Source of the DNA: an uncultured Candidatus Saccharibacteria bacterium
GTDB lineage: Bacteria > Patescibacteriota > Minisyncoccia > UBA6257 > GWB1-50-10
Assembly (NCBI GenBank): GCA_964534105.1
Contig: CAZHOF010000001.1
Location: forward strand, 13,126-48,243
Direction: 5' to 3'
Length of the DNA stretch: 35,118 nt
The position numbers were made by a program, and so were the translations under genes. Position 1 is the first letter of the stretch; the number at the start of each line of letters is the position of its first letter. Positions 3,753 through 35,088 of the stretch are shown here, one piece after another. The notes below the pieces were generated by a model. The model saw only the letters and a program-made list of their open reading frames with translations. It was not told the origin of the DNA and did not search any database.

Positions 3753-3894
3753 GCCCCTCACCTTTTCTTAATTTTCCGGCTATAATTTATATTAATTGCC
3801 GATGTAGCTCAGTTGGTAGAGCAACGCTTTCGTAAAGCGTGGGTCGTCGGTTCGAATCCGACCATCGGCTCATGATCGAGAAAAGGTGAGGGGC
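3753..3894. repeat. 15-nt perfect inverted repeat bracketing tRNA-Thr
   Basis: GCCCCTCACCTTTTC (3753-3767) and GAAAAGGTGAGGGGC (3880-3894) are exact reverse complements. They lie 30 nt upstream and 9 nt downstream of the tRNA. Confidence 0.85.
3798..3870 (+). tRNA. tRNA-Thr(CGT)
   Basis: Full cloverleaf: GCCGATG-TA-GCTC-AGTTGGTA-GAGC-A-ACGCT-TTCGTAA-AGCGT-GGGTC-GTCGG-TTCGAAT-CCGAC-CATCGGC-T. CCA is not encoded. A TATAAT lies at 3781-3786. Confidence 0.95.
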
Positions 3895-3972
3895 AAGCAA
3901 AGATTTCTCGGCCTGCCACGCTGATTTTGGAAAAATTGTGCGGGATTCGAATCTGGGAGGTAGCTCAAAGAA

Positions 3973-22795: not shown

Positions 22796-24798
22796 TCCTC
22801 TTGATCCTGAGAAGCTGCTTCTTCGCCAATTTCTTTGGGCTTGCTCCAAGACGCATAGTCGCAATCAGGGTATCTGTTGCAACCATAAAACATGCGGCGC
22901 TTTTTCGTTCTCTTTTTTACAACCTCTCCCTTCTTGCACTTTGGACAGGGACCAAGAGGTTCCTGGGGATTTCCAAGTGATTTCGTACTTTTACATTCAG
23001 GAAAACCGGTACAGGCAAGAAATCTGCCGAAGCGCCCGGTTTTTACAACCATCGGCTTTCCGCATTTCTCGCATACCTCATCGGTTTTCTCTTCCGGAGG
23101 AAGAATGTCATCCTTTGAAACCTCTTCGTATTTCTTTTCCAGATGCTTTGCGAAAGGTTCGTAAAACTTGCGGATTGCCTTGCGCCATTCCAAATTCCCT
23201 TCGGCAATCGCATCCAACTCTTCTTCAAGCCGGGCGGTAAATCCAACATCAACGATTTCAGGAAAGTGTTCTTTGAGAAGGCGATTTACAAGCGTGCCGA
23301 TTTCAGTCGGTTCAAAGCGCCGAGATTCGTTTTTCTGAACATAATTGCGAAGTTGGATAACTGAAATGATTGGGGCATATGTGGAAGGACGCCCGATACC
23401 GAAGGTCTCGAGAGCTTTAATAATACTCGCTTCGTTGTAGCGGGGAGGAGGTTCCGTAAAATGCTGCTCCGGATTTACCGCAATGACCGAAAGGACATCT
23501 CTGCGAGTTATGTTTGGAAGAGTACGCTCCTCGAATTTTTGAGGCCAAACTTTGAGAAAGCCGTCAAACACAAGAGTTGTTCCGTTAGCCCTTAAAAGAT
23601 ATTCGTTTTTCTTGTGTTCCACGGAAACAGAAATGGTGGTTGCACTGAACTGGGCCTGCGGGAGCTGCGAGGCAATAAATCGGCGCCAAATAAGTTCATA
23701 CACCTTGCGTTCGGCGGCTTGGGAAAATTCCTTTCCGAGCGATTCCGGCGTACGCGCAGGATCCGTAGGACGTATGGCCTCATGGGCTTCTTGTGCGAGG
23801 CGGGATTTTACTTTGAAAACCCTCGGTTTTTCGATAAGGTAATCCTTGCCCCATTCGTGTTGAATAAAGCGACGCGCAGCGCTTAAAGATTCCTGCGAAA
23901 GATTGAAGGAATCGGTACGCATATAGGTGATATGACCGTTTTCATACAAGCTTTGGGCCGCGCGCATGGTTTGACGTGCACTCAGGCGAAGCTTTCGGTT
24001 CGCCTCCTGTTGCAGGGTGCTGGTGATAAATGGAGGGAGTGGATTCCGTTTCACTGTTTTTTGCGTTATATCATTTATGGAAACAGAACCGTTCTGGATG
24101 TCGTCAGCGATAATGTTTACCTCTTTTTCGGTCGCAATACCGGGCTTCGGGAGCGATTCCTTATTTATGCTGTGAAGTGCTGCGGTAAAGGATTCCTGCC
24201 CCCCTTCTTTCTGAAAATCGGCGGTAAGCGTCCAATATTCTTCGGGCTTGAAACGTTGTATCTCTTCCTCGCGATCGGCAATAAGGCGGAGCGCAACAGA
24301 TTGTACGCGTCCTGCCGAAAGTCCGCGTACAACTTTTTTCCAAAGGAATGGAGAAAGAAGATAGCCTACCAAACGGTCGAGAATACGGCGGGCTTGTTGG
24401 GCATTTACAAGGCTTATGTTCAGCTGTCGGGGGTGTTCCAAGGCGCTCTGAAGAGCATCCTTCGTAATCTCATGAAAGACGATGCGTTCTGTCTTGTCGG
24501 TTGCAAGATCAAGCGCCTGGGTAAGGTGCCAGGCAATAGCTTCCCCTTCGCGATCTTCGTCAGTAGCGAGGACAACCTCGTCCGCAGAAGCCGCCTTTTT
24601 CTTTAAGGCGGTGACCGTTTTCCGAACTTTTGTGGGAATAACGTATTGGGGAGAAAAATCTTCGTCTACGTCAATGCCGAGCTTGCTCTTTGGAAGGTCG
24701 CGAATATGGCCGTAGGAAGAAGTTACCTCGTAATCACTGCCAAGGAACTTACTGATGGTCTTTGCTTTAGTAGGTGATTCTACAATGACTAGTTTCAT
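22792..24798 (-). CDS. topA: DNA topoisomerase I
   Basis: MKLVIVESPTKAKTISKFLG (TOPRIM), ATDEDREGEAIAWH, HITYMRTDS (active-site Tyr region), and two C-terminal zinc ribbons (CEKCGKPM..C, CPKCKKG..C). Its stop overlaps the map stop by 4 nt (convergent). Confidence 0.97.
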   Translation of the reverse strand: MKLVIVESPTKAKTISKFLGSDYEVTSSYGHIRDLPKSKLGIDVDEDFSPQYVIPTKVRKTVTALKKKAASADEVVLATDEDREGEAIAWHLTQALDLATDKTERIVFHEITKDALQSALEHPRQLNISLVNAQQARRILDRLVGYLLSPFLWKKVVRGLSAGRVQSVALRLIADREEEIQRFKPEEYWTLTADFQKEGGQESFTAALHSINKESLPKPGIATEKEVNIIADDIQNGSVSINDITQKTVKRNPLPPFITSTLQQEANRKLRLSARQTMRAAQSLYENGHITYMRTDSFNLSQESLSAARRFIQHEWGKDYLIEKPRVFKVKSRLAQEAHEAIRPTDPARTPESLGKEFSQAAERKVYELIWRRFIASQLPQAQFSATTISVSVEHKKNEYLLRANGTTLVFDGFLKVWPQKFEERTLPNITRRDVLSVIAVNPEQHFTEPPPRYNEASIIKALETFGIGRPSTYAPIISVIQLRNYVQKNESRRFEPTEIGTLVNRLLKEHFPEIVDVGFTARLEEELDAIAEGNLEWRKAIRKFYEPFAKHLEKKYEEVSKDDILPPEEKTDEVCEKCGKPMVVKTGRFGRFLACTGFPECKSTKSLGNPQEPLGPCPKCKKGEVVKKRTKKRRMFYGCNRYPDCDYASWSKPKEIGEEAASQDQED

Positions 24799-24998
24799 GA
24801 TGATGGCGATGGTTTTTGTCCCGCCACTTTACGAGCGGAGCGAGTATAAAGTGGGCGAGGATCCCGCTTATATCCCGATGCAAATCTTGCAATAGTGTCT
24901 TGACAGAAAGTGGCGGGATCACGTCCATTAACCTCCCGCATGGCGGATTGGGATATGGGCGGGACTTTAGTAGGTGATTCTACAATGACTAGTTTCAT
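24765..24998 (-). repeat. 34-nt perfect direct repeat of the topA start (period exactly 200 nt)
   Basis: 24765-24798 and 24965-24998 are identical (CTTTAGTAGGTGATTCTACAATGACTAGTTTCAT). On the minus strand this is ATG plus the first 11 codons of topA. Confidence 0.95.
24819..24964 (-). mobile_element. 146-nt insertion-like or intron-like element interrupting an upstream duplicate of the topA 5' end
   Basis: In topA sense it starts TCCCGCC and ends GGCGGGA (7-bp complementary termini). The flanks are ..ACTAAAG^ and ^CAAAAACCATC. The native gene reads ..ACTAAAG-CAAAGACCATC. Confidence 0.45.
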
Positions 24999-26715: not shown

Positions 26716-26787
26716 GGGCGTGTAGTTCAGTGGTAGAACGCTGTCCTGATAAGACAGAGGTCGATGGTCCGATTCCATCCACGCCCA
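26716..26787 (+). tRNA. tRNA-Ile(GAT)
   Basis: GGGCGTG-TA-GTTC-AGTGGTA-GAAC-G-CTGTC-CTGATAA-GACAG-AGGTC-GATGG-TCCGATT-CCATC-CACGCCC-A. CCA is not encoded. The T-loop reads TCC where TTC is usual. Confidence 0.9.
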
Positions 26788-26850
26788 CACGAATTTTCTC
26801 CGAGCGGAGCGAGGCAAGGAAATTCAGTGCCCGCCTGAGGCGGGCAACAT

Positions 26851-27093
26851 ATGCACTTTGTTTATGTGTTGAAAAGTACACGGGATGGCCATCGCTATGT
26901 TGGAAGCGCGAATGACGTGGAACGCCGTTTTCGAGAACACCAGCGCGGCAAAGTAAGCTCGACAGAACAGCGGCGACCCCTTATGCTTCTATACAGCGAG
27001 TGCTATACCACTCAAAAAGAAGCACTACAGCGGGAACAGTTTCTGAAGTCCGGAAAGGGGAGACAGTGGCTTGATGCAAGAGGGATACGGTAG
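26851..27093 (+). CDS. Small GIY-YIG nuclease family protein (YhbQ/UPF0213-like)
   Basis: 80 aa: FVYVLKS..DGHRYVGSANDVERRFREHQRGK...T...RP..LLYSE.Y....EAL.RE..LKS. Confidence 0.8.
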   Translation: MHFVYVLKSTRDGHRYVGSANDVERRFREHQRGKVSSTEQRRPLMLLYSECYTTQKEALQREQFLKSGKGRQWLDARGIR

Positions 27094-27126
27094 CTCGCCA
27101 AAGAGCAATAACAGAAAGTTGTAATA

Positions 27127-27161
27127 GGCCCCGTAGCTCAGTTGGTAGAGCACTACATTTG
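27127..27161 (+). pseudogene. tRNA-Ala-like 5' half, ending inside the anticodon
   Basis: GGCCCCG-TA-GCTC-AGTTGGTA-GAGC-A-CTACA-TTTG, then non-tRNA sequence TCCCGAT. Confidence 0.7.
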
Positions 27162-27211
27162 TCCCGATATTGTTCAAATTTTTCAAATTTGATTACAATA
27201 TCGAGGATCCT

Positions 27212-27320
27212 CGATAACTTTGGTGGGCCCGTAGCTTAGTTGGTAGAGCGCCACATTTGCAATGTGGAGGTCACCGGTTCGAATCCGGTCGGGTCCACCA
27301 TGGGCCCACCAAAGTTATCG
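27212..27320. repeat. 19-nt perfect inverted repeat bracketing tRNA-Ala
   Basis: CGATAACTTTGGTGGGCCC (27212-27230, including the first 6 nt of the tRNA) and GGGCCCACCAAAGTTATCG (27302-27320). Confidence 0.9.
27225..27300 (+). tRNA. tRNA-Ala(TGC), CCA encoded
   Basis: GGGCCCG-TA-GCTT-AGTTGGTA-GAGC-G-CCACA-TTTGCAA-TGTGG-AGGTC-ACCGG-TTCGAAT-CCGGT-CGGGTCC-A-CCA. G3:U70 is present. Confidence 0.95.
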
Positions 27321-27323
27321 GGA

Positions 27324-27361
27324 CAATGTAGGGGTCGCGGGTTCGAATCCCGCTCGGTCCA
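27324..27361 (+). pseudogene. tRNA-Ala-like 3' half (partner of 27127-27161)
   Basis: CAA-TGTAG-GGGTC-GCGGG-TTCGAAT-CCCGC-TCGGTCC-A. TGTAG complements CTACA of the 5' half. The acceptor complementarity is degraded. Confidence 0.7.
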
Positions 27362-27427
27362 CAAACGAGGATACTGCGTTCATTATCTCGGGATCGCGGA
27401 TAACATAATCGCATTACTCCTTGTTCT

Positions 27428-27472
27428 TCGGGACAATGTGGAGGTCACCGGTTCGAATCCGGTCGGGTCCAC
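27428..27472 (+). pseudogene. Orphan tRNA-Ala 3' half preceded by a TCGGGA junction
   Basis: 27434-27472 is identical to 27260-27298 of the intact gene (39 nt). It is preceded by TCGGGA, as at 27318. Confidence 0.8.
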
Positions 27473-27509
27473 ACGAATCACTTTAAACTACGCGTATCTG
27501 GAGCAGTCT

Positions 27510-27920
27510 ATGAAACTCTATATAACAGCAAGTTTTAAAAACGGAGAAAACGAGAAAGAAATTGAACGCCTTTGCGCGCTTGTGAAAGAAGCTGGATTTG
27601 AAGATTTTTGTTTTATCCGTGACGTTGAAAATTATCAAAAACTTTTTGATAACCCGCAGGAATTGATGCAACGTGCGAAGGAGGAGATTGAAAAGTCAGA
27701 CGGATTGCTTATTGATGTGACTGAGAAACCGACGGGGAGGGCAATAGAAGCAGGAATTGCATTTGCGCTAGGAAAGAAGATTGTTGTCATAGCAAAAAGT
27801 GGGACGAAGATTAAAGATACTACGAGGGGAATCACTGACATTGTGGTTGAATACAATGTCATTGACGATATTGTCCAGCCATTACAAGAATGGCTTTCAG
27901 GGATAGAAACATCTCAATAA
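27510..27920 (+). CDS. Nucleoside 2-deoxyribosyltransferase-like protein
   Basis: 136 aa. MKLYITASF.., LLIDVTEKPTGRAIEAGIAFALGKKIVVI matches the PF05014-type acidic-residue/Gly-rich core. GGAG lies 6 nt upstream of the ATG. The annotated 27240 start only reads through tRNA sequence. Confidence 0.7.
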   Translation: MKLYITASFKNGENEKEIERLCALVKEAGFEDFCFIRDVENYQKLFDNPQELMQRAKEEIEKSDGLLIDVTEKPTGRAIEAGIAFALGKKIVVIAKSGTKIKDTTRGITDIVVEYNVIDDIVQPLQEWLSGIETSQ

Positions 27921-28012
27921 TTTGGTTCTAATTAACACACATGAAGTCAAAAAAGTATCTTAATAAAAATCGGATTCAAATAGGAGCGGGGGCGGAAGAA
28001 CATCCGAGGTAA

Positions 28013-28021
28013 TGGTATAAT
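28013..28021 (+). promoter_or_regulatory. Extended -10 element upstream of the zinc-ribbon operon
   Basis: TGGTATAAT, 32 nt upstream of the 28054 ATG. Confidence 0.4.
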
Positions 28022-28053
28022 GTATATTACACACACTAATACACGACAAAACT

Positions 28054-28533
28054 ATGTTTTGCTCAAATTGCGGTACGAAAGTTAAAGGAAAGGCGAGTTT
28101 TTGTCAAAGTTGCGGCAAATCAATCGACAAGGGAAAAGCAACTACTTTAGCGGAAAGAACGGTGTCCGAATTTATGATCGCAAATCTTTTCAAGGGAAGA
28201 ATTGGGAGAAAGGAATGGGTATTGGGAATTATTCTTTTGATTGGAATGTTGTTTGCAACCGCCTTTCTTATTGCAAGTATTTCTGAATATCTTATTTTAT
28301 TAATTCCATTGTACATTGTTTATGCAGTTTTTCTTTTTTCACTTCATATTCGCCGCCTTCACGATTTGAACTATTCTGGGTGGGTTGCGTTAGTTTTTAG
28401 CATTCCAATAGCTAACTTGATATTACTTCTTATTTTAACCCTCTCTAGTGGAAAAGAGATAGAGAATAGATATGGGAAGAAGCTAGACCCGAACGCGAAA
28501 TTATTAGACGTTTTATTAGGCAAAGTGAATTAG
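28054..28533 (+). CDS. Zinc-ribbon / DUF805-like inner membrane protein
   Basis: N-terminal MFCSNCG..FCQSCG. GRIGRKEW, RRLHDLNYSGW and 3-4 TM helices are typical of DUF805 (YhaH-like). Confidence 0.7.
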   Translation: MFCSNCGTKVKGKASFCQSCGKSIDKGKATTLAERTVSEFMIANLFKGRIGRKEWVLGIILLIGMLFATAFLIASISEYLILLIPLYIVYAVFLFSLHIRRLHDLNYSGWVALVFSIPIANLILLLILTLSSGKEIENRYGKKLDPNAKLLDVLLGKVN

Positions 28534-28546
28534 TTAGATAGGCACC

Positions 28547-29233
28547 ATGTTCTGTACTAATTGTGGAGATAAGGTTAACGATGGAATTAAATTCTGCGGG
28601 AAATGTGGCAAAATTATTATCAATAAAAGCACAAACTTAAATTCTAGACGGACATCACCGCCCACCTATGAAAGAATAGAAAATTCAATATCTTACCTCC
28701 CCCAAATAATTCACGAGAAATCGAATCGGAGGTTATATTTTGGATATTTGCTGCTTACTGTGGCAGTTATTTTTTTCATTTATCAGATTAATTATGTTGC
28801 AATCGGACTCACTTGTTGGGGCGGATTTCTTGTTTTTAGACGGATAACTGATCGTGAAGACAAAAAGCATTATGCTTATCAGATTACCTCCTTAGCTGGA
28901 TATCAAAATATAAATGATTTATCGAAAGATTTTATTAGGACTGAAAAAGTTGGAATTGTAAAAATCGGTAGTTATAAGTTAAATAGCGATTTTCTTTCAA
29001 GGGAAAAGTTTTTCTCATATGAAATATATCCGATGTCGCAAATGTTCTGGGCCTATAAGAAGATCATTAGGAAAAGTATTAATTTTATACCAGTAGGCAA
29101 GGACTATGAGATAGTTATGCATTTCAAGCCAGATAAGGTAGTGTCCATTAAAGAACCGGAGAAAAGCACTGATCGGCATCTCATGCTTTTAATCCATCTT
29201 TGTCCAGAGGCAGAATTTGGATACGCGAAATAA
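28547..29233 (+). CDS. Zinc-ribbon membrane protein with an unknown C-terminal domain
   Basis: N-terminal MFCTNCG..FCGKCG, two hydrophobic helices, and a C-terminal domain of about 130 aa with no motif I recognise. Confidence 0.6.
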   Translation: MFCTNCGDKVNDGIKFCGKCGKIIINKSTNLNSRRTSPPTYERIENSISYLPQIIHEKSNRRLYFGYLLLTVAVIFFIYQINYVAIGLTCWGGFLVFRRITDREDKKHYAYQITSLAGYQNINDLSKDFIRTEKVGIVKIGSYKLNSDFLSREKFFSYEIYPMSQMFWAYKKIIRKSINFIPVGKDYEIVMHFKPDKVVSIKEPEKSTDRHLMLLIHLCPEAEFGYAK

Positions 29234-29249
29234 TCTTTTATAATCAGAC

Positions 29250-30305
29250 ATGTTTTGTAAACATTGTGGAGAAAAAATAAAAAAAAGTAATAAGTTTTGT
29301 AATTTCTGCGGTCAGGCTCTATTGCCAACAACACTAACAGAACAAAAGAGAGATTGGAATGGTTATCTTTGGAAAGCTCTACTTGTATCAGCAATTGTAA
29401 TAGCGATTGGCTTATATGCATTTATTTACTTTAGCGATCACGCTTCTGAAGATGATCACGCTTCTTCTCTTTTAAATGAGCTTGATCCTAATATTCAACC
29501 AGTCGGTTATTTCGATGATCCTAATGTTTTTGAATCAGAAAGTATCAGCGACGAGGAATGGTTTTCGCACCTTCAATATTATGAAATTGAAGATATTGCT
29601 CCCATATATGACAAATCTAGATTTCAATTCCCAAACCAGAGGGAAATACTTAGCTCAGTAGTAAAAATAGTTTGTGAAGATTCGAATTATTTTTATTATG
29701 GTTCAGGAACTAATTTTGATAGCGGTGGCTACGTTCTTACAAACTTACACGTTTTAGAAAACATAAACGGGAGATGTGTTATAGGATTTCCCGATCCCGA
29801 ATCCGGTTTAATAAAAGAAGCGTATTGGGCAGCTCCAATTATTGATAAAGACAACATCACTGGCCATGACTTAGCTTACTTATCCGTGGAGGACCCAGTA
29901 TTTGATGAGAGTTATAATATTTATGGGTATTATGACAAAATATTCGACGGTTCATTTTCTTATTTTGAAATAACAGAAGATTGTTCTAGTACCCCTACCC
30001 AACTTGGAGATAGATTATTCGTGGTTGGTTACCCACCTCTCAGTGGGGGAGCACTCACAATTACTGACGGTCTGGTGAGTAGTTTGTATTCTCGAGATGG
30101 TTACATCATTACTTCAGCGAAAATTGTTAGTGGTAATTCTGGCGGATTAGCTGTAGATGGACAAGGTTGTTATGTGGGGGTGCCAACAGCTGTATATTAT
30201 GAAGAGGGAGATGAGTATCTTGGCGAAATTATTGATGCAGAATTTGTTGACGAATTTGATGAGGCTGTTACAGATGATATCGACGAGTATTTTAATTCTC
30301 TGTAG
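29250..30305 (+). CDS. Zinc-ribbon-anchored trypsin-like serine protease
   Basis: N-terminal MFCKHCG..FCNFCG and one TM helix. The protease core has GSGTNFDSGGYVLTNLHV (His), GHDLAYL (Asp) and GNSGGLAVD (Ser). The C-terminal tail is acidic. Confidence 0.75.
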   Translation: MFCKHCGEKIKKSNKFCNFCGQALLPTTLTEQKRDWNGYLWKALLVSAIVIAIGLYAFIYFSDHASEDDHASSLLNELDPNIQPVGYFDDPNVFESESISDEEWFSHLQYYEIEDIAPIYDKSRFQFPNQREILSSVVKIVCEDSNYFYYGSGTNFDSGGYVLTNLHVLENINGRCVIGFPDPESGLIKEAYWAAPIIDKDNITGHDLAYLSVEDPVFDESYNIYGYYDKIFDGSFSYFEITEDCSSTPTQLGDRLFVVGYPPLSGGALTITDGLVSSLYSRDGYIITSAKIVSGNSGGLAVDGQGCYVGVPTAVYYEEGDEYLGEIIDAEFVDEFDEAVTDDIDEYFNSL

Positions 30306-30330
30306 GCCTATCTGCCCCTAAACCTAAGGG

Positions 30331-30367
30331 AATAAATGACTCAACCGGTTGAGTCATTTATTTTTCT
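30331..30367. terminator. Strong bidirectional intrinsic terminator
   Basis: 32-nt perfect palindrome AATAAATGACTCAACC/GGTTGAGTCATTTATT, followed by TTTTT. Confidence 0.8.
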
Positions 30368-30523
30368 GTCGCATTTCCTCATCACGGGCGGCGAGGCAAT
30401 CTTAGTTTTTGCTCAATCGCGGCAGAATTCCTACCCCCGATCTTCTCGTCGCGCCCGGCGGGTGTCCGGCCAAGCCACGAAGCAGTAAGGCATACTACTT
30501 ATGCATAGTAATCACTTTCTACG

Positions 30524-30532
30524 TGTTATAAT
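30524..30532 (+). promoter_or_regulatory. Extended -10 element upstream of the four-gene operon
   Basis: TGTTATAAT, 73 nt upstream of the 30606 ATG. Confidence 0.4.
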
Positions 30533-30605
30533 GTCCATAATAAGAAAAAACTGAGCAGTTTCGGCAAGAAAAGGGGCTCTTGCAAGACAAATTCTCCAAA
30601 AAGCT

Positions 30606-31604
30606 ATGTCTATATCTGAAAAATTACAAACTAGTGCGCTCGCTACAATCACGGCTCTCACTGTGCCGGTAATACTGCTGAATTTACTCGGCGGGATTGT
30701 GTCGGGTACCTGGTTAGCTATTTTAGGCGAATGGGGCGAAATAATCAGGGGCATAATCTTTTTTGTAGCGTCTGGTTTCGCTGTTTCTTTTGCCCTTATG
30801 CCCAGCTTGCTTTTTGCCGGACCTGCGGCAATAGCAATGGAGCGCGGTAAAAAGATTCTCGGAGCATTGTTTGGCTCGCTTAGCATACTTTATACCGTCG
30901 CCCTGATTACAGTGTGGTGTATTTGGGTCATGTGGCTTTTTGTGAGTTCTGCGGCTGAAAGCTCACTTATCCCACTATTGTTTTGGTCGTATGGCGTTGC
31001 CCTCGGGCCTTGGATGTGGCTTGCACAAAAAGATCAACAGGGCGGTGGAAATGAATTTTCGATACTCACGACATTTTTTGCACAAGCGGCATATATTTTG
31101 GGAATGATAATGTTTTTCTTTAATGCAACACTTGGAACTATTGCCGTAATATTTGGAATAATTATGCTTTCTGGTGCAATCTTCCAAATGATAATAGTGT
31201 TTGGCGGAGAAATGAAAAAATCGTTTGCTTCAAAAGATATTAAGGAAGCATTGGTAATTTTAGATGAAATAGGACGAACCATCGGCGGATCAGGTTTTGA
31301 TCTAGTACGGGAGCCAGTTGAAAAGTATCTTGTTTCTCATGGCAAGGAATACAAAGAAACCGTAAGTGAAACCTCCGCCCGCCAATGGGTTTATTCCGCC
31401 GTTGCCAATACTGCCGGAGATTTTATGGAAAGCGGACACTATCATATTTATCGTGGTGTGCTCAACCCAATGGGGCCGGGCGGAGACTTATTAAAACTCT
31501 TCGATAGTACGATTGATGAGCTTGTCAAAATGGGAGCATTGGAAGCGGAAAATGCGAAGAAAGAAAAAGCACGGCTCCGAAAGAATATGGACCAAATGGG
31601 ATAA
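30606..31604 (+). CDS. Polytopic membrane protein with a soluble C-terminal domain (unknown family)
   Basis: 332 aa with about 6 hydrophobic helices in the first 200 aa. The C-terminal region is soluble (GHYHIYRGVLNPMGPGGDLL). Confidence 0.65.
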   Translation: MSISEKLQTSALATITALTVPVILLNLLGGIVSGTWLAILGEWGEIIRGIIFFVASGFAVSFALMPSLLFAGPAAIAMERGKKILGALFGSLSILYTVALITVWCIWVMWLFVSSAAESSLIPLLFWSYGVALGPWMWLAQKDQQGGGNEFSILTTFFAQAAYILGMIMFFFNATLGTIAVIFGIIMLSGAIFQMIIVFGGEMKKSFASKDIKEALVILDEIGRTIGGSGFDLVREPVEKYLVSHGKEYKETVSETSARQWVYSAVANTAGDFMESGHYHIYRGVLNPMGPGGDLLKLFDSTIDELVKMGALEAENAKKEKARLRKNMDQMG

Positions 31605-31607
31605 AAC

Positions 31608-32585
31608 ATGCCGAAATCAAATCGAGAAAAACTAAAAGAATTACAAACAACCCTCGAACAAATTAAACAGAGAGCTAATGAGATTGAACAAAAAATCAAC
31701 AACAGCCAAGTTTCTCTCGATCAAATTTCCCAACATAAAACGAGCGCGGAGCAGTGGCGCGGGGAAATTGAAACAATAAAGAACCAGTCGACAGAAGCCC
31801 GTGGCGAGATAGAAGCGCTAAAAGAAGAAATCGAGGAAACGAAAGATGAACTCACTGAAAAACTGAATGCGGTTGAAGTAAAGAAAGAAGACATTGATAA
31901 ATTCTTCATCAAAATTTTTGGCGAGGAAGATGAACAAGGAAAACAATCAGGCGGACTTAGTACGAGATTAAATCAGAAAGAAAAAGAGGCAGATACTTTC
32001 CTTAACGCTCAAGAGAAAAAATACAAGGAGCTGTTTGAAAAGATAGAATCCCTATTACCGGGAGCAGCAAGTACGGGGCTAGCTAAGGCATATTATGACC
32101 AGAAAATTAGCTACAAATGGCCGATTAGGGCTTGGGCTATTGTTTTCGTTCTAGCGTTAGTAGGCGTATTTATAACTGGCCTATTAAGTTACGAAAATGG
32201 TATCAAACTTAGCTTCGAGGAACTTCTTAATGTTGAACAAGCCACATCAAAACTGATTGCTAGAATTCCATTTTTCTTTGCGCTTATTTGGTTGGCGGCA
32301 TTTAGCTCTAAGCAGTACAGACAGAATAAGAGATTAGAGCAGGAGTATGCTCATAAGGAAGTACTGGCGAAATCGTATCAGGGGTATAAGCGAGAACTTG
32401 AATCACAAGGGAAAACAGCGGCTGACAAAGAGATTATTGCTGCTTTACATAAAGTCCTAGTTGCCACAATAGCAAAAAATCCGAGCGAAATAATGGACGA
32501 TGGACGCAAAGACGATACGCCGTCAATTTGGACCAAACCGTTCAATTTAACAATATTTGGGAAAGATAAGAATGGACAAAAATAA
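31608..32585 (+). CDS. Coiled-coil protein with a 2-TM hairpin (unknown family)
   Basis: 325 aa. The first 150 aa or so are E/K/Q-rich. Then LPGAASTGLAKAYY and two helices (WAIVFVLALVGVFITGLL, IPFFFALIWLAAF), followed by a charged tail. Confidence 0.65.
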   Translation: MPKSNREKLKELQTTLEQIKQRANEIEQKINNSQVSLDQISQHKTSAEQWRGEIETIKNQSTEARGEIEALKEEIEETKDELTEKLNAVEVKKEDIDKFFIKIFGEEDEQGKQSGGLSTRLNQKEKEADTFLNAQEKKYKELFEKIESLLPGAASTGLAKAYYDQKISYKWPIRAWAIVFVLALVGVFITGLLSYENGIKLSFEELLNVEQATSKLIARIPFFFALIWLAAFSSKQYRQNKRLEQEYAHKEVLAKSYQGYKRELESQGKTAADKEIIAALHKVLVATIAKNPSEIMDDGRKDDTPSIWTKPFNLTIFGKDKNGQK

Positions 32586-32597
32586 CATACAAACCCC

Positions 32598-33521
32598 ATG
32601 ATTGTGCCTAAAAGGATAACCAAAAGGAAAATTACTATACCTATATCTAGTACCAATGGAGGAAATAGCGTTGCTCGGACAGACATTCAGTTTGGAAGTA
32701 AGAGTATTACTTTATTAATAGGGCTGGATTTACTGATTAGGATTCAGTACAAAGAACAACGCGAGAAAAAAGTTCTTAAAACACTTAAAGGTAAAATTCT
32801 TAGAGACAGAAGACTCTTCACGGCAAAAAACCGAAAGTCTACCCAAAAGTTTTTAGTTGCTGACCGAGAAATAAGAGAGTTGTTAAATAAGGACAAAAAG
32901 GAGTTAAATAAAAGAAATAAGTCAGAGTTCGAAGACTTTTCTAGTAATCTTAAGCGAAGACAGGATTTACTATTAAAAATAGCGAAGGATTTAAACTTCG
33001 ATGTTGTCCGATCGCATAAGGAATACATTTGTAAAAATTGCAACGGGTTTCGAGCAGGGCCTAGTCTTGCAGCAACAAGCAAACCAACATGCGCATTATG
33101 TAAAAACCTACTCAAAGGATTTAATATTCAGCAAATAGATACAGATGTGGCGGCTTATTTAACTGGTTATTGGTTAGAAGATTATGTTGCTAATATTCTA
33201 AGTAAAAATAATTGGGAAGCATGGTCATCTCCCACTCTATTGGTCTATGGTGTATCCGGAGCTTCTCATCAAGTTGATGTGCTAGCAATCAAAGACGGGC
33301 GAATTCTTATTATTGAGTGTAAAACAGGAGAATTCGCGCCAACTCAAGTTATGAATTTTTTAGGAAAGTACCATGATATCCGTTGCCATCAAGCGCTAGC
33401 TGTTTCAATTGGAAAGATTCACCCGGATGCCAGAAAAATAATAGAAAAGAATGTGGCGATAGATTATTATGATAATATAAATGACTATAAAAAATTAATT
33501 GAGAAAATTAAAAAATTATGA
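32598..33521 (+). CDS. Zn-ribbon plus PD-(D/E)xK (NERD/restriction-endonuclease-like) nuclease
   Basis: 307 aa with a K/R-rich N-terminus and CKNCNG...CALCKN. The core HQVDVLAIKDGRILIIECKTGE shows a D...ExK pattern. Confidence 0.65.
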   Translation: MIVPKRITKRKITIPISSTNGGNSVARTDIQFGSKSITLLIGLDLLIRIQYKEQREKKVLKTLKGKILRDRRLFTAKNRKSTQKFLVADREIRELLNKDKKELNKRNKSEFEDFSSNLKRRQDLLLKIAKDLNFDVVRSHKEYICKNCNGFRAGPSLAATSKPTCALCKNLLKGFNIQQIDTDVAAYLTGYWLEDYVANILSKNNWEAWSSPTLLVYGVSGASHQVDVLAIKDGRILIIECKTGEFAPTQVMNFLGKYHDIRCHQALAVSIGKIHPDARKIIEKNVAIDYYDNINDYKKLIEKIKKL

Positions 33522-33814
33522 CAAGAGTAACTAAGCAATCCGGCGTCTTGCCGTGGCAAGCAACAAATATTTCTACTGCACCATCTAAACCTGGAGTTTA
33601 TGCACTAAGGACTTCGACCGAAATAAGCAGTGTTGTTTACATAGGAAGTTCTGACAACATTGAAAGAAGGCTGAATGAGCATTTTTTGTTAGGCGATATT
33701 CCTGGGATTTCGTTCTTTGACTGGTATGAGGCCGACTCTATGGAAGCCGCACGAGAGCTTGAAAAAGAGTGGATAGTTAAACATTCTCCAAAATACAATA
33801 CTCGGGTTGGGTAA
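33518..33814 (+). CDS. GIY-YIG domain nuclease
   Basis: 98 aa: PGVYALR...VVYIGSSDNIERRLNEH, ..ARELEKEWI. Start overlaps the upstream stop (ATGA). Confidence 0.75.
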   Translation: MTRVTKQSGVLPWQATNISTAPSKPGVYALRTSTEISSVVYIGSSDNIERRLNEHFLLGDIPGISFFDWYEADSMEAARELEKEWIVKHSPKYNTRVG

Positions 33815-33853
33815 TGGTGATTTGATGATTTTGTGATGATATGATGTAGATAT

Positions 33854-34396
33854 ATGGGTATCCTGGTTCGCAGCTATACGGAAGACGGTTATCAGTCCAT
33901 TCCCTCAGTGCGTCTTTCGGACGAGGAGTATGGAAGAGGATTGCAATGTTTCGTGCCGGTGTGTACGGACATTGCTATTATCGACCGGAAGACGCAAACG
34001 ATCTATCTGGCTAAACGAAAAACGAAACCGATGCCCGATTGGTGGTGGATCGGCGGCCGCATGGAACCGCACGAGACGAAAGAGGAAGCCGCGGTAAGAA
34101 GCTTCGAACGCGAAACCGGCTTAAAACTCCCTCAAAACCGTTTTCAGCTGGCCACAATTTTCGATTATCGTTACAAAGATCGGGCTCAAACGCCGCAGGA
34201 GATCGGATGTCACACTCTCGGCTACACGTTTGTTGTTGAGCTGGAACCGGCGGAACTAGCTTTCGCGTCTTCTCATCTTGAAAGACATGAATATGAACCA
34301 AGCGCCGGTCTTCCTCCTTTTAATCGGGAACAATTAATCGAAAAGAATGTATTCCCAGCAATCCTCGATCTTTTTAACCATGTTTTTCCGATTTGA
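33854..34396 (+). CDS. NUDIX hydrolase
   Basis: Nudix box GGRMEPHETKEEAAVRSFERETGL. Confidence 0.85.
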   Translation: MGILVRSYTEDGYQSIPSVRLSDEEYGRGLQCFVPVCTDIAIIDRKTQTIYLAKRKTKPMPDWWWIGGRMEPHETKEEAAVRSFERETGLKLPQNRFQLATIFDYRYKDRAQTPQEIGCHTLGYTFVVELEPAELAFASSHLERHEYEPSAGLPPFNREQLIEKNVFPAILDLFNHVFPI

Positions 34397-34623: not shown

Positions 34624-35088
34624 CTAGACGGGGATGAGAATAGCTCCGTCGGGAGCGGTTTCAATGGGGCGGACAAATAATCCGAAATCCATGCAGAGCC
34701 GATGCGTATTTCTTGCGAAATCTTCTCCGATCCACGCAACGTACCTTTCCCGAGGATCCGCGTCTTGTTTCCGCGCTATGGCGCCGAGCGGAAGGAATCG
34801 GGCATCGTCTGGAACGCTTTCCGGGGTAACGCTGCTCGTCGAAGAATACCGCCCTCCGAGAGGATCGGGGTCGAGATAGAATATTTTATGATACCCATCT
34901 CTGCAACCCGCACGGAGAAAGAGCATCTCTTCAGGGTTTTGAGTTGGATTTCGATTGCCGTCGATCGGCTCGCGATCCGCATTGACGAGGACAACCGGCA
35001 TTCCGACGAGCACTCGAGCGGAATCGAGAAGCGGAGCAATGCGCTGAGCTTCCCGAACGAGCCTTGACACCTCTTCCGTTGCTTGCAT
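34624..35088 (-). CDS. Hypothetical protein
   Basis: 154-aa ORF with a strong AGGAGG 6 nt upstream. No recognisable motif. It looks more G+C-rich than its neighbours by eye. Confidence 0.6.
   Translation of the reverse strand: MQATEEVSRLVREAQRIAPLLDSARVLVGMPVVLVNADREPIDGNRNPTQNPEEMLFLRAGCRDGYHKIFYLDPDPLGGRYSSTSSVTPESVPDDARFLPLGAIARKQDADPRERYVAWIGEDFARNTHRLCMDFGLFVRPIETAPDGAILIPV

Follow-up and report, generated by a model that had tools for sequence, protein, structure and literature searches.

The window analysed here, a stretch of 35,118 nucleotides from an uncultured Candidatus Saccharibacteria bacterium (GenBank assembly GCA_964534105.1, contig CAZHOF010000001.1, positions 13,126 to 48,243 of the forward strand), has a gene content like that of the candidate phyla radiation (CPR), with DprA, TopA and adenylate kinase alongside numerous small hypothetical proteins. 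At positions 27127-27472 it contains an unusual tRNA-Ala locus: a tRNA-Ala gene split in its anticodon loop, an intact tRNA-Ala(UGC) gene lying between the two halves, and a further orphan 3' half downstream. We interpret this locus as a probable scar of small mobile cassettes that carry their own tRNA, here called the cargo tRNA. Upstream of it are a tRNA-Ile gene (26716-26788), preceded by a promoter-like site, and then an 80-aa open reading frame (ORF) of the GIY-YIG nuclease family; no terminator lies between the tRNA-Ile gene and the tRNA-Ala locus. The features of the locus are listed below, with the relative ages of insertions worded according to the layering proposed further on. Other loci and contigs are given by their L numbers.

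26851 to 27093, plus strand: gene of an 80-aa GIY-YIG nuclease similar to Slx1 and UPF0213 (Pfam PF01541, E 3e-16; AlphaFold predicted local distance difference test score 95.9; Foldseek)
27127 to 27161, plus strand: relic 5' half (nt 1-35) of a presumed older cargo tRNA-Ala, cut after G35 (collinear with L025 when the insert is removed)
27162 to 27323, plus strand: ORF-less twin-hairpin cassette of 162 nt, the presumed youngest insertion, with ends TCCCGAT...ATCGGGA (near-identical cassettes in L030, L024 and L089)
27165 to 27203, plus strand: hairpin of module 1, at the place taken by the GIY-YIG ORF in copies regarded as autonomous (inverted-repeat search; ORF-bearing copies)
27199 to 27216, plus strand: palindrome TATCGAGGA-TCCTCGATA at the junction of modules 1 and 2 (same motif, ATCGAGGATCCTCGAT or GTCGGGATCCCGAC, in most copies)
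27212 to 27320, plus strand: module 2, a perfect 19-nt inverted repeat around the cargo tRNA (leader and trailer inverted repeats in nearly all copies)
27225 to 27300, plus strand: intact cargo tRNA-Ala(UGC), presumably the functional gene (ARAGORN; Rfam, 75 bits)
27324 to 27362, plus strand: relic 3' half (nt 36-73) of the presumed older cargo tRNA-Ala (identity to L025)
27363 to 27433, plus strand: 3' arm of a presumed older element of the long flavour, ending with TCGGGA at 27428-27433 (homology to L019, L036 and L044)
27434 to 27472, plus strand: outermost relic 3' half, presumably of the tRNA-Ala invaded originally, with its 5' partner missing (38/38 identical to the outer 3' half of L025)

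The relic 5' half (GGCCCCGTAGCTCAGTTGGTAGAGCACTACATTTG) ends with TTTG and shares 89% identity with the corresponding part of the intact gene, which has G3:U70 and an encoded CCA end. The first 3' half begins with CAA and is 79% identical to the 3' half of the intact gene. A sequence-only reading of this DNA had described an intact tRNA-Ala nested in a split and decaying tRNA-Ala gene; its coordinates and sequence statements concerning the split and intact genes all checked out, and the nested arrangement held with ARAGORN, with the Rfam tRNA model and in alignments of the half genes. The orphan 3' half is, as it had stated, an exact 39-nt copy (100%) of 27260-27298, found after an interval of 135 nt. 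The poor acceptor pairing reported for the split gene was confirmed at 5/7, with C3·U70 and C6·C67 mismatched and no G3:U70 in the joined halves, which fits a relic no longer under selection. The anticodon stems of the split and the intact gene do differ (CTACA/TGTAG versus CCACA/TGTGG), but what had been taken for a compensatory pair is ordinary tRNA covariation inherited from a gene of the L025 type.

The hexamer TCGGGA stands directly 5' of both 3' halves, and its reverse complement, TCCCGA, directly 3' of the 5' half. Together with the adjoining TTG and CAA, these hexamers form an 11-nt perfect inverted repeat which bounds the 162-nt insert. That they are not tRNA sequence had been recognised already; they are the conserved ends of a recurrent element. 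Within the window, the pattern TCCCG...CGGGA occurs 7 times versus 1.07 expected. Inside the insert, two hairpins (27165-27203 and 27199-27216) are followed by the intact tRNA, flanked by the perfect 19-nt inverted repeat 27212-27230/27302-27320. Both this repeat and the exact 39-mer repeat are far above chance expectation. The trailer CACGAAT that follows 27434-27472 is the same as the trailer of the resident tRNA-Ile. A candidate for a further copy of the element at 34751 (CGAGGATCCGCG) looks like ordinary coding DNA and was rejected, and beyond the locus the window showed no further tRNA-Ala fragment.

The closest unoccupied counterpart of the window locus is L025 (contig JAUYPG010000057.1). 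When the 162-nt insert is removed, the window aligns end to end with this uninterrupted locus, which shares its trailer, its TCGGGA and its outer 3' half; the earlier proposal that the two halves once formed one gene is thereby borne out. The intact tRNA-Ala of L025 is identical to the joined halves of the window at positions 8-65 except for one D-loop base, and the first 30 nt of 27324-27362 as well as the trailer CAAAC are identical to it. The contig comes from a metagenome-assembled genome (MAG) labelled Nanoarchaeota, which means either a binning error or cross-domain transfer of the element. Close relatives yielded no orthologous tRNA-Ala allele: those found through the neighbouring 173-aa protein (82% and 62% identity) are on contigs that end at or just after the tRNA-Ile gene. 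Two loci, L019 and L089, share the gene order of the window: genes homologous to those of its 173-aa and 76-aa proteins are followed by tRNA-Ile and then by a tRNA-Ala nest.

The same design recurs at about 60 other loci in many CPR/Patescibacteria lineages, as revealed by two DNA-pattern scans. In the scan for 3' junctions, one genome per species was searched with TCGGGACAA plus a generic variable loop and T arm; it gave 13 loci, all from CPR (Parcubacteria, Saccharibacteria, Kaiserbacteria, Brennerbacteria and Nealsonbacteria) except one in a MAG labelled Nanoarchaeota. The scan for 5' junctions, in which metagenomes were searched for a tRNA D arm followed by ...T-N-N-G-TCCCGA, gave 55 loci. 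Together with the window and three loci of the genome scan, these make about 50 non-redundant cases. The shared design consists of a 5' half ending with G35, TCCCGA(T), a hairpin or a GIY-YIG gene, an intact tRNA, (A)TCGGGA and a matching 3' half. An intact tRNA of the same amino acid was present 40-345 nt downstream of the 5' half in 47 of the about 50 cases, the distance being 40-105 nt in copies without an ORF and 280-345 nt in those with an ORF or a further nested relic (L032). Among the cases without a downstream tRNA, three stop at a contig edge, and L060 is an unrelated integrase-type junction without the architecture. The inner and outer anticodons were the same (Ala UGC, Ala CGC or Thr UGU) except in L024, where an outer GGC gene encloses a UGC cargo. 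The junction patterns were absent from viral contigs, where four matches to a 16-nt palindrome proved to be unrelated coding sequence.

Individual loci show how regular the design is and how it can be layered. In L030 and L024, the outer tRNA-Ala 5' half is followed by a near-identical insert (TCCCGATATTGTTCAAAT...ATCGAGGATCCTCGATAACTTTGGT), then by the intact tRNA-Ala inside and CCAAAGTTATCGGGA, and finally by the 3' half of the outer gene. An 84-aa GIY-YIG ORF replaces the first hairpin in L021. Nests of three levels occur in L089 and L049, and L056 has three relic 3' halves in tandem. The nest of L089, from a Jorgensenbacteria MAG, is complete: an outer 5' half is followed by a GIY-YIG-bearing element, whose cargo is split by an ORF-less cassette of the window type, and by two relic 3' halves. 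Some loci have a 3' relic alone (L020, L025 and the tRNA-Trp locus of L027) or a 5' relic alone (L033, L034 and L076); deletion between the direct repeats of the halves would explain them. The contig L008 ends at about window position 27220, and L012-L015 end 60-280 nt past the 76-aa gene. As independent assemblies tend to break at or just before nested tRNA loci, the elements are probably under-represented in MAGs.

All copies fit a scheme of two hairpin modules that have their arms in common, the first running TCCCGAT, hairpin or ORF, ATCGRGGA, and the second TCCYCGAT, leader, tRNA, trailer, ATCGGGA, over a total of 115-430 bp. The terminal inverted repeats TCCCGAT/ATCGGGA occur in multiple copies, leader and trailer inverted repeats surround the cargo tRNA in nearly all of them, and in L037 and L080 the junction of the modules is a perfect palindrome, GTCGGGA-TCCCGAC. 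The right end, (A)TCGGGA, was recovered even when GG[GA]A alone was required before the 3' half (T in 37/38 and C in 35/38 copies). The 5' exon ends with G35 in 50/50 copies and the element with A in 38/38. The insertion is flush between G35 and position 36, between TTG and CAA, without target duplication. Copies of the element that lack a tRNA lie in the T loop, between TTC and GAA, of relic 3' halves in L045 and L073.

Several variants of this anatomy were observed. Elements of the long flavour (L019, L036, L044, L052 and L042) and of a third flavour (L039, L049, L020 and L025) have 5' and 3' arms with three or four complementary segments in parallel rather than nested order. Such segments cannot all pair in one simple fold; this points to alternative conformations, to pseudoknots or to past shuffling of the modules. 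Palindromic inserts of only 20-30 nt are present in relic halves of L035, L036, L078 and L013 (CCTGCCTGC...GGCAGGCAGG) and of L027 (CCACCCTACGGGTGGTCACCCGCAGGGTGA), where they occupy D loops or the stems and loops of anticodon arms; by their appearance, these mini-hairpins form a family of elements of their own. The T-loop sequence GTCCGA in place of GTTCGA occurs in relic 3' halves of L039, L055, L056, L068, L082, L089 and L090, and is among the few differences between the near-identical relics of L039 and L049. It was dropped as a mark of relics, since two intact tRNAs also have it.

Comparison of filled and empty sites points to movement of the exact element. Besides the pair formed by the window and L025, removal of a 145-nt insert from L049 leaves a sequence that matches L039 over about 190 nt, with about 96% identity. 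The outer 3' halves of these two loci are nearly the same and their outer 5' halves differ, suggesting that the 3' flank travels with the element in a manner like co-conversion. The identity of cargo tRNAs to the halves surrounding them ranges from 57 to 100% and is often 60-85%, so that the cargo was imported and not duplicated from the target; in most cases, the inner tRNA is foreign to the halves that enclose it. The relics are damaged in various ways, by hairpin inserts (L035, L036 and L078), D-arm inserts (L019 and L088), T-loop inserts (L045 and L073) or truncation (L086), and in the window, L021 and L039 the halves no longer match each other.

A further copy of the element in the window, at 24799-24961 on the minus strand (G-TCCCGCC...GGATCC...GGCGGGA-CAA), lies in a protein-coding gene and interrupts codon 12 of topA; the relative L012 has an uninterrupted topA site. 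The first 34 nt of topA are duplicated (24765-24798 and 24965-24998), and the second copy restores the gene. The TGA stop of the 67-aa relic topA ORF overlaps the new ATG (ATGA), suggesting translational coupling.

The only protein of the element is a GIY-YIG nuclease domain. An ORF of 80-90 aa with this domain (Pfam PF01541, E 1e-12 to 1e-16) is present inside nine of the about 50 inserts, and each such ORF is bounded by a 12-21-nt perfect inverted repeat covering the start codon and the last codons. As a single query, the GIY-YIG protein of the window gave almost no matches, and a profile of the cassette ORFs was needed; it retrieved 1286 protein clusters, all of about 80-130 aa, and every named one was from CPR. 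When five members of this profile were chosen blind to their context, four (L086, L088, L089 and L090) proved to lie in a tRNA-Ala nest, with the ORF between a tRNA-Ala 5' half plus TCCCGAT and an intact tRNA-Ala plus TCGGGA and a 3' half. The fifth, L087, is a two-module element without a tRNA, inserted between ATTG and CAAAA near the start of a zinc-ribbon protein gene, which it truncates. Including L021, five loci thus have homologous ORFs between the 5' end of the element and the cargo tRNA.

In phmmer searches, the protein matched EF2693 (E 1.4e-4), BH0048 (E 4.5e-4) and SLX1 (E 0.016). In Foldseek, the UPF0213 protein BH0048 (E 4.5e-4) and the Slx1 nuclease domain (query TM-scores of mostly 0.62-0.70) ranked best, ahead of the catalytic domain of I-TevI (about 0.5). 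The catalytic residues Y5, Y16, R26 and E62 are invariant or nearly so. At 80-90 aa, the proteins consist of the catalytic domain alone, without a separate DNA-binding domain. From the position of its homologues, the window ORF 26851-27093 probably belongs to an older, outer element, whose own 5' end would have decayed. The cassette is probably moved by its Slx1/UPF0213-like nuclease.

Taken together, these observations make it likely that the locus is a layered scar of small selfish DNA cassettes which target tRNA genes in CPR/Patescibacteria and compensate for the damage with a cargo tRNA. In the loop of module 1, such a cassette carries the 80-90-aa GIY-YIG gene, or a bare hairpin in non-autonomous copies, and in the loop of module 2 a complete tRNA gene. 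It would enter a resident tRNA gene of the same kind between positions 35 and 36, splitting it into two dead halves, and the insertion would cost the host little because the cargo tRNA takes over the function. As the cargo tRNA retains the target, it can be invaded again, so that the intact gene would always be innermost and relic halves would pile outwards. The initiating break may be made by the GIY-YIG protein in a homing-like manner, with the tRNA halves serving as homology arms, and ORF-less copies may be mobilised in trans. Transcription of the inner tRNA would start at the promoter upstream, and ordinary tRNA maturation would set it free.

By analogy with the complete three-level nest of L089, the window locus can be read as the product of two successive insertions. 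An older, nuclease-bearing element would have entered the resident tRNA-Ala, leaving the ORF 26851-27093, the 3' arm 27363-27433 and the relic 27434-27472. Its cargo tRNA (27127-27161 plus 27324-27362) would then have been split by the ORF-less cassette 27162-27323, whose own cargo, the tRNA-Ala at 27225-27300, would be the working gene now. In keeping with this, 27363-27433 shows homology with the 3' arms that the elements of L019, L036 and L044 have, with a score reached by 0/500 shuffles.

Several observations weigh against this layered-cassette interpretation or are not predicted by it. The outermost 5' half is absent from the window, and the window ORF is linked to the older element by its position and by a weak 12-nt match between 26789-26850 and the 5' arm of the long flavour, which 6-24/500 shuffles reach. 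The identity of 27434-27472 to the 3' half of the youngest cargo does not follow from a simple age ordering and needs gene conversion or a locally derived cargo. The cargo tRNA keeps the target sequence, and the model offers no explanation of how self-cutting is avoided; moreover, an 80-aa protein without a DNA-binding domain would be an odd site-specific endonuclease. The strictly conserved complementary ends at both junctions would suit a role at the RNA level too, and such strictness is unexpected under homing. Finally, the outer halves pair 7/7 in 14/19 automatically paired cases, and the outer cloverleaf is intact in some young copies (L030 and L024); the full pairing fits recent insertion, as well as continued function.

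The last two points lead to the alternative that the element is an intron acting at the RNA level: TCCCGA and TCGGGA, together with the anticodon stem, would align the exons, the inner tRNA and the ORF would loop out, and a bacterial nuclease and ligase would splice the outer gene, giving two tRNAs per transcript. The site in the anticodon loop, the complementary ends abutting both junctions, and the enclosure of the ORF and of the tRNA each in a stem, as in ORF-bearing introns, are all compatible with this. Many outer tRNAs are perfectly paired, including G3:U70 (L030, L024, L058, L059 and L061), and in L024 an outer GGC gene would add decoding capacity to the inner UGC one. However, no group I, group II or other ribozyme match was found in the window locus at E up to 10 or in five element loci at E up to 0.1; in Rfam, the window locus and these five gave tRNA only, the weak matches to transfer-messenger RNA and plastid untranslated regions being tRNA-like sequence. 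The exon ends with G and the insert with A, contrary to the group I rules (U·G in P1 and an intron-final G). By inspection, no register fits a bulge-helix-bulge (3-nt bulge, 4 bp, 3-nt bulge); the two junctions lie directly opposite one another at the foot of an unbroken helix. The stems have 12 G·T and 17 A·C mismatches among about 1,325 Watson-Crick pairs; this is strand-symmetric, without the G·U excess that RNA helices under selection would show, and thus points to the DNA level. The outer halves are often mismatched, truncated or interrupted by further inserts, and a cargo of the same isoacceptor, which is what nearly all copies have, would be superfluous if the outer gene were spliced. 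In protein-coding DNA, topA was rescued by its duplicated 5' end and the zinc-ribbon gene of L087 was truncated. We consider an RNA intron unlikely, and the evidence argues against joining of 27161 to 27324 at the RNA level.

Alternatives without any such element fare worse. Since tRNA genes are classic integration sites, the exact 39-nt direct repeat, which comprises the 3' part of the tRNA from the anticodon loop onwards, might be a duplicated att site left by phages or integrative elements that entered this loop and were later deleted, and the region of lower GC content downstream (28-34 kb) would agree with that. This would leave unexplained the 5' half with its inverted end sequence and the whole tRNA between the halves. 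Moreover, no integrase is encoded between or near the repeats or further downstream in the window, the intervals measure a mere 25-135 nt, the same tiny units occur at about 60 loci with no match in viral contigs, and the sole integrase-like junction among the pattern matches (L060) lacks the architecture, all of which makes integrase-mediated duplication very improbable. A local accident, that is, tandem duplication or template switching at the palindromic anticodon arm followed by decay, with neither a mobile element nor a function, could exploit the palindrome TTGCAA, and fold-back synthesis could produce flanks that form a long near-perfect inverted repeat. It would hardly give rise, in three tRNA species and dozens of unrelated genomes, to identical ends, modules and positions of the junction, cargo often just 60-85% identical to the surrounding halves, or filled and empty sites differing by the exact element; its probability appears slighter still. 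As to a chimera that an assembler made from several tRNA-Ala alleles, such repeats are known to cause confusion in assembly, and L008 ends inside the locus and L012-L015 just upstream of it. Nevertheless, the 417 bases 27094-27510 are 100% identical among contigs of nine different samples, assembled by two pipelines, and the same architecture is present in long contigs of up to about 700 kb. Because of this identity across samples and pipelines, misassembly can for practical purposes be regarded as excluded, and of all the explanations we give it the least credence.

The selfish, tRNA-carrying cassette that we favour shares one or two features with each of several known systems and fails a defining feature of each. 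The phage T4 gene segB is a free-standing GIY-YIG homing endonuclease gene located beside tRNA genes (PMC2330249). As there, a GIY-YIG gene is found among tRNA genes, its selfish spread would involve flanking tRNA sequence, and it is present or absent at a conserved target. SegB is a larger protein, encoded between intact tRNA genes, and splits none, whereas the present insert lies inside a tRNA gene and has a replacement tRNA, terminal inverted repeats, a twin-hairpin body and ORF-less derivatives. With nucleases of the I-TevI/Seg type in general, it shares the catalytic Tyr, Tyr, Arg and Glu as well as occupied and unoccupied alleles (L049/L039, window/L025, and topA of the window/L012), but not the DNA-binding domain that gives those nucleases their long-site specificity.

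Group I introns sit in anticodon loops of bacterial tRNA genes (cyanobacterial tRNA-Leu and tRNA-fMet), some of them with homing endonuclease ORFs. Similarly to them, the element occupies the anticodon loop, loops its ORF out of a stem and appears to move horizontally into a highly conserved target. In contrast to them, it has no ribozyme core, does not follow the U·G and omega-G rules and is too short; the damage is apparently neutralised by a spare gene here and by splicing in the introns. Integrative elements rebuild the 3' end of the tRNA gene that they enter, with attL/attR duplications. They, too, target tRNA genes, bring tRNA sequence that keeps the gene working, and leave orphan 3' fragments or arrays; however, they use a tyrosine integrase, are kilobases long and replace the 3' part alone, while the present element, of 115-430 bp and without an integrase, carries a whole tRNA and leaves both 5' and 3' relics.

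PMC10714607, citing PMC2650326, summarises the split, tri-split and intron-containing tRNA genes of archaea (Nanoarchaeum and Caldivirga), whose tRNA introns are likewise regarded as mobile. As with split archaeal tRNAs, half genes here have mutually complementary non-tRNA flanks, TCCCGA(TA)/(TA)TCGGGA. The archaeal halves are functional, a dedicated endonuclease and a ligase joining them at a bulge-helix-bulge, whereas in the element there is no bulge-helix-bulge, the halves decay, an intact copy lies between them and the hosts are bacteria. Miniature inverted-repeat transposable elements resemble it in their short terminal inverted repeats, hairpin bodies, an excess of ORF-less over ORF-bearing copies and several copies per genome; unlike them, it makes no target-site duplication, has no recognisable transposase, encodes a hydrolytic nuclease domain as its sole protein and carries a tRNA. 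In the literature that we covered, which is incomplete, no description of this nested-tRNA cassette architecture was found.

Further observations concern tRNA replacement with other junctions. L013 (2453-2668) and L016 (1495-1714) come from the relatives that share 82% and 62% protein identity with the window. At their tRNA-Ile loci, an insert-bearing 5' fragment of a tRNA is followed by an intact tRNA-Ile of different sequence. Such fragments with a fresh intact copy indicate that tRNA replacement is not limited to Ala, Thr, Tyr or Trp or to the TCCCGA family. L027, from Saccharibacteria, has three nests within 1.3 kb (240-1500, minus-strand orientation). In the first, a tRNA-Thr(GGU) lies between Thr fragments; in the second, a GIY-YIG ORF and an intact tRNA-Tyr lie between parts of tRNA-Tyr, with a 43-nt overlap and without TCCCGA ends; in the third, a tRNA-Trp is followed by TCGGGA and a Trp 3' half. 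Evidently, related cassettes with other junctions exist.

Elsewhere in the window, the tRNA-Thr(CGU) gene at 3798-3871 lies inside a perfect 16-nt inverted repeat (3753-3768/3879-3894), the only other long spaced perfect inverted repeat of the window. The repeat also takes in a TATAAT-like upstream region, and the whole resembles a tRNA-carrying module; a T-arm-like fragment, GATTCGAATCC, is found about 70 nt downstream of it, at 3943-3953 on the minus strand. Directly downstream of the tRNA-Ala locus, the GC content drops from about 0.47 to 0.35-0.40 (28000-34000), in a region with zinc-ribbon membrane proteins and a restriction-endonuclease-like ORF, and without an integrase. The ORF 33518-33814 has weak similarity to the GIY-YIG protein of the window (E 0.003 over 29 aa).

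A bolder proposal, which we put forward only tentatively and hold to be rather doubtful, is that the Slx1-like GIY-YIG protein is the element's own mobility enzyme and acts on DNA structure instead of a long sequence. Such a structure-directed nuclease would cut in the stem-loops of tRNA genes, in the anticodon loop between TTG and CAA and in the T loop between TTC and GAA; the twin hairpins of the element, with their shared arms and a possible branch-migrating four-way junction, may be its substrate also. The element would then represent a previously unrecognised class of nuclease-driven mobile DNA, self-neutralised by its cargo tRNA, and would be a major shaper of the tRNA gene content of CPR.

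Selfish nuclease genes in essential genes usually hide in self-splicing introns or inteins. If the cassette interpretation is true, bringing a spare copy of the destroyed gene would be a third solution to the survival of a selfish nuclease. The cassette, with its unreported way of neutralising the damage, may become a new class once the mechanism is known, and it offers a compact, testable pair of nuclease and target. It would also explain the litter of half genes at CPR tRNA loci, the numerous small GIY-YIG genes and the assembly breaks. Moreover, these loci would be a natural experiment on the origin of split tRNA genes, bearing on the long debate over split and intron-containing tRNAs. For CPR, this interpretation implies horizontal replacement of tRNA genes, with consequences for phylogenies based on tRNAs, for tRNA annotation and for judging how complete a genome is. 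Programs that find tRNAs report the inner gene alone and miss the relics.

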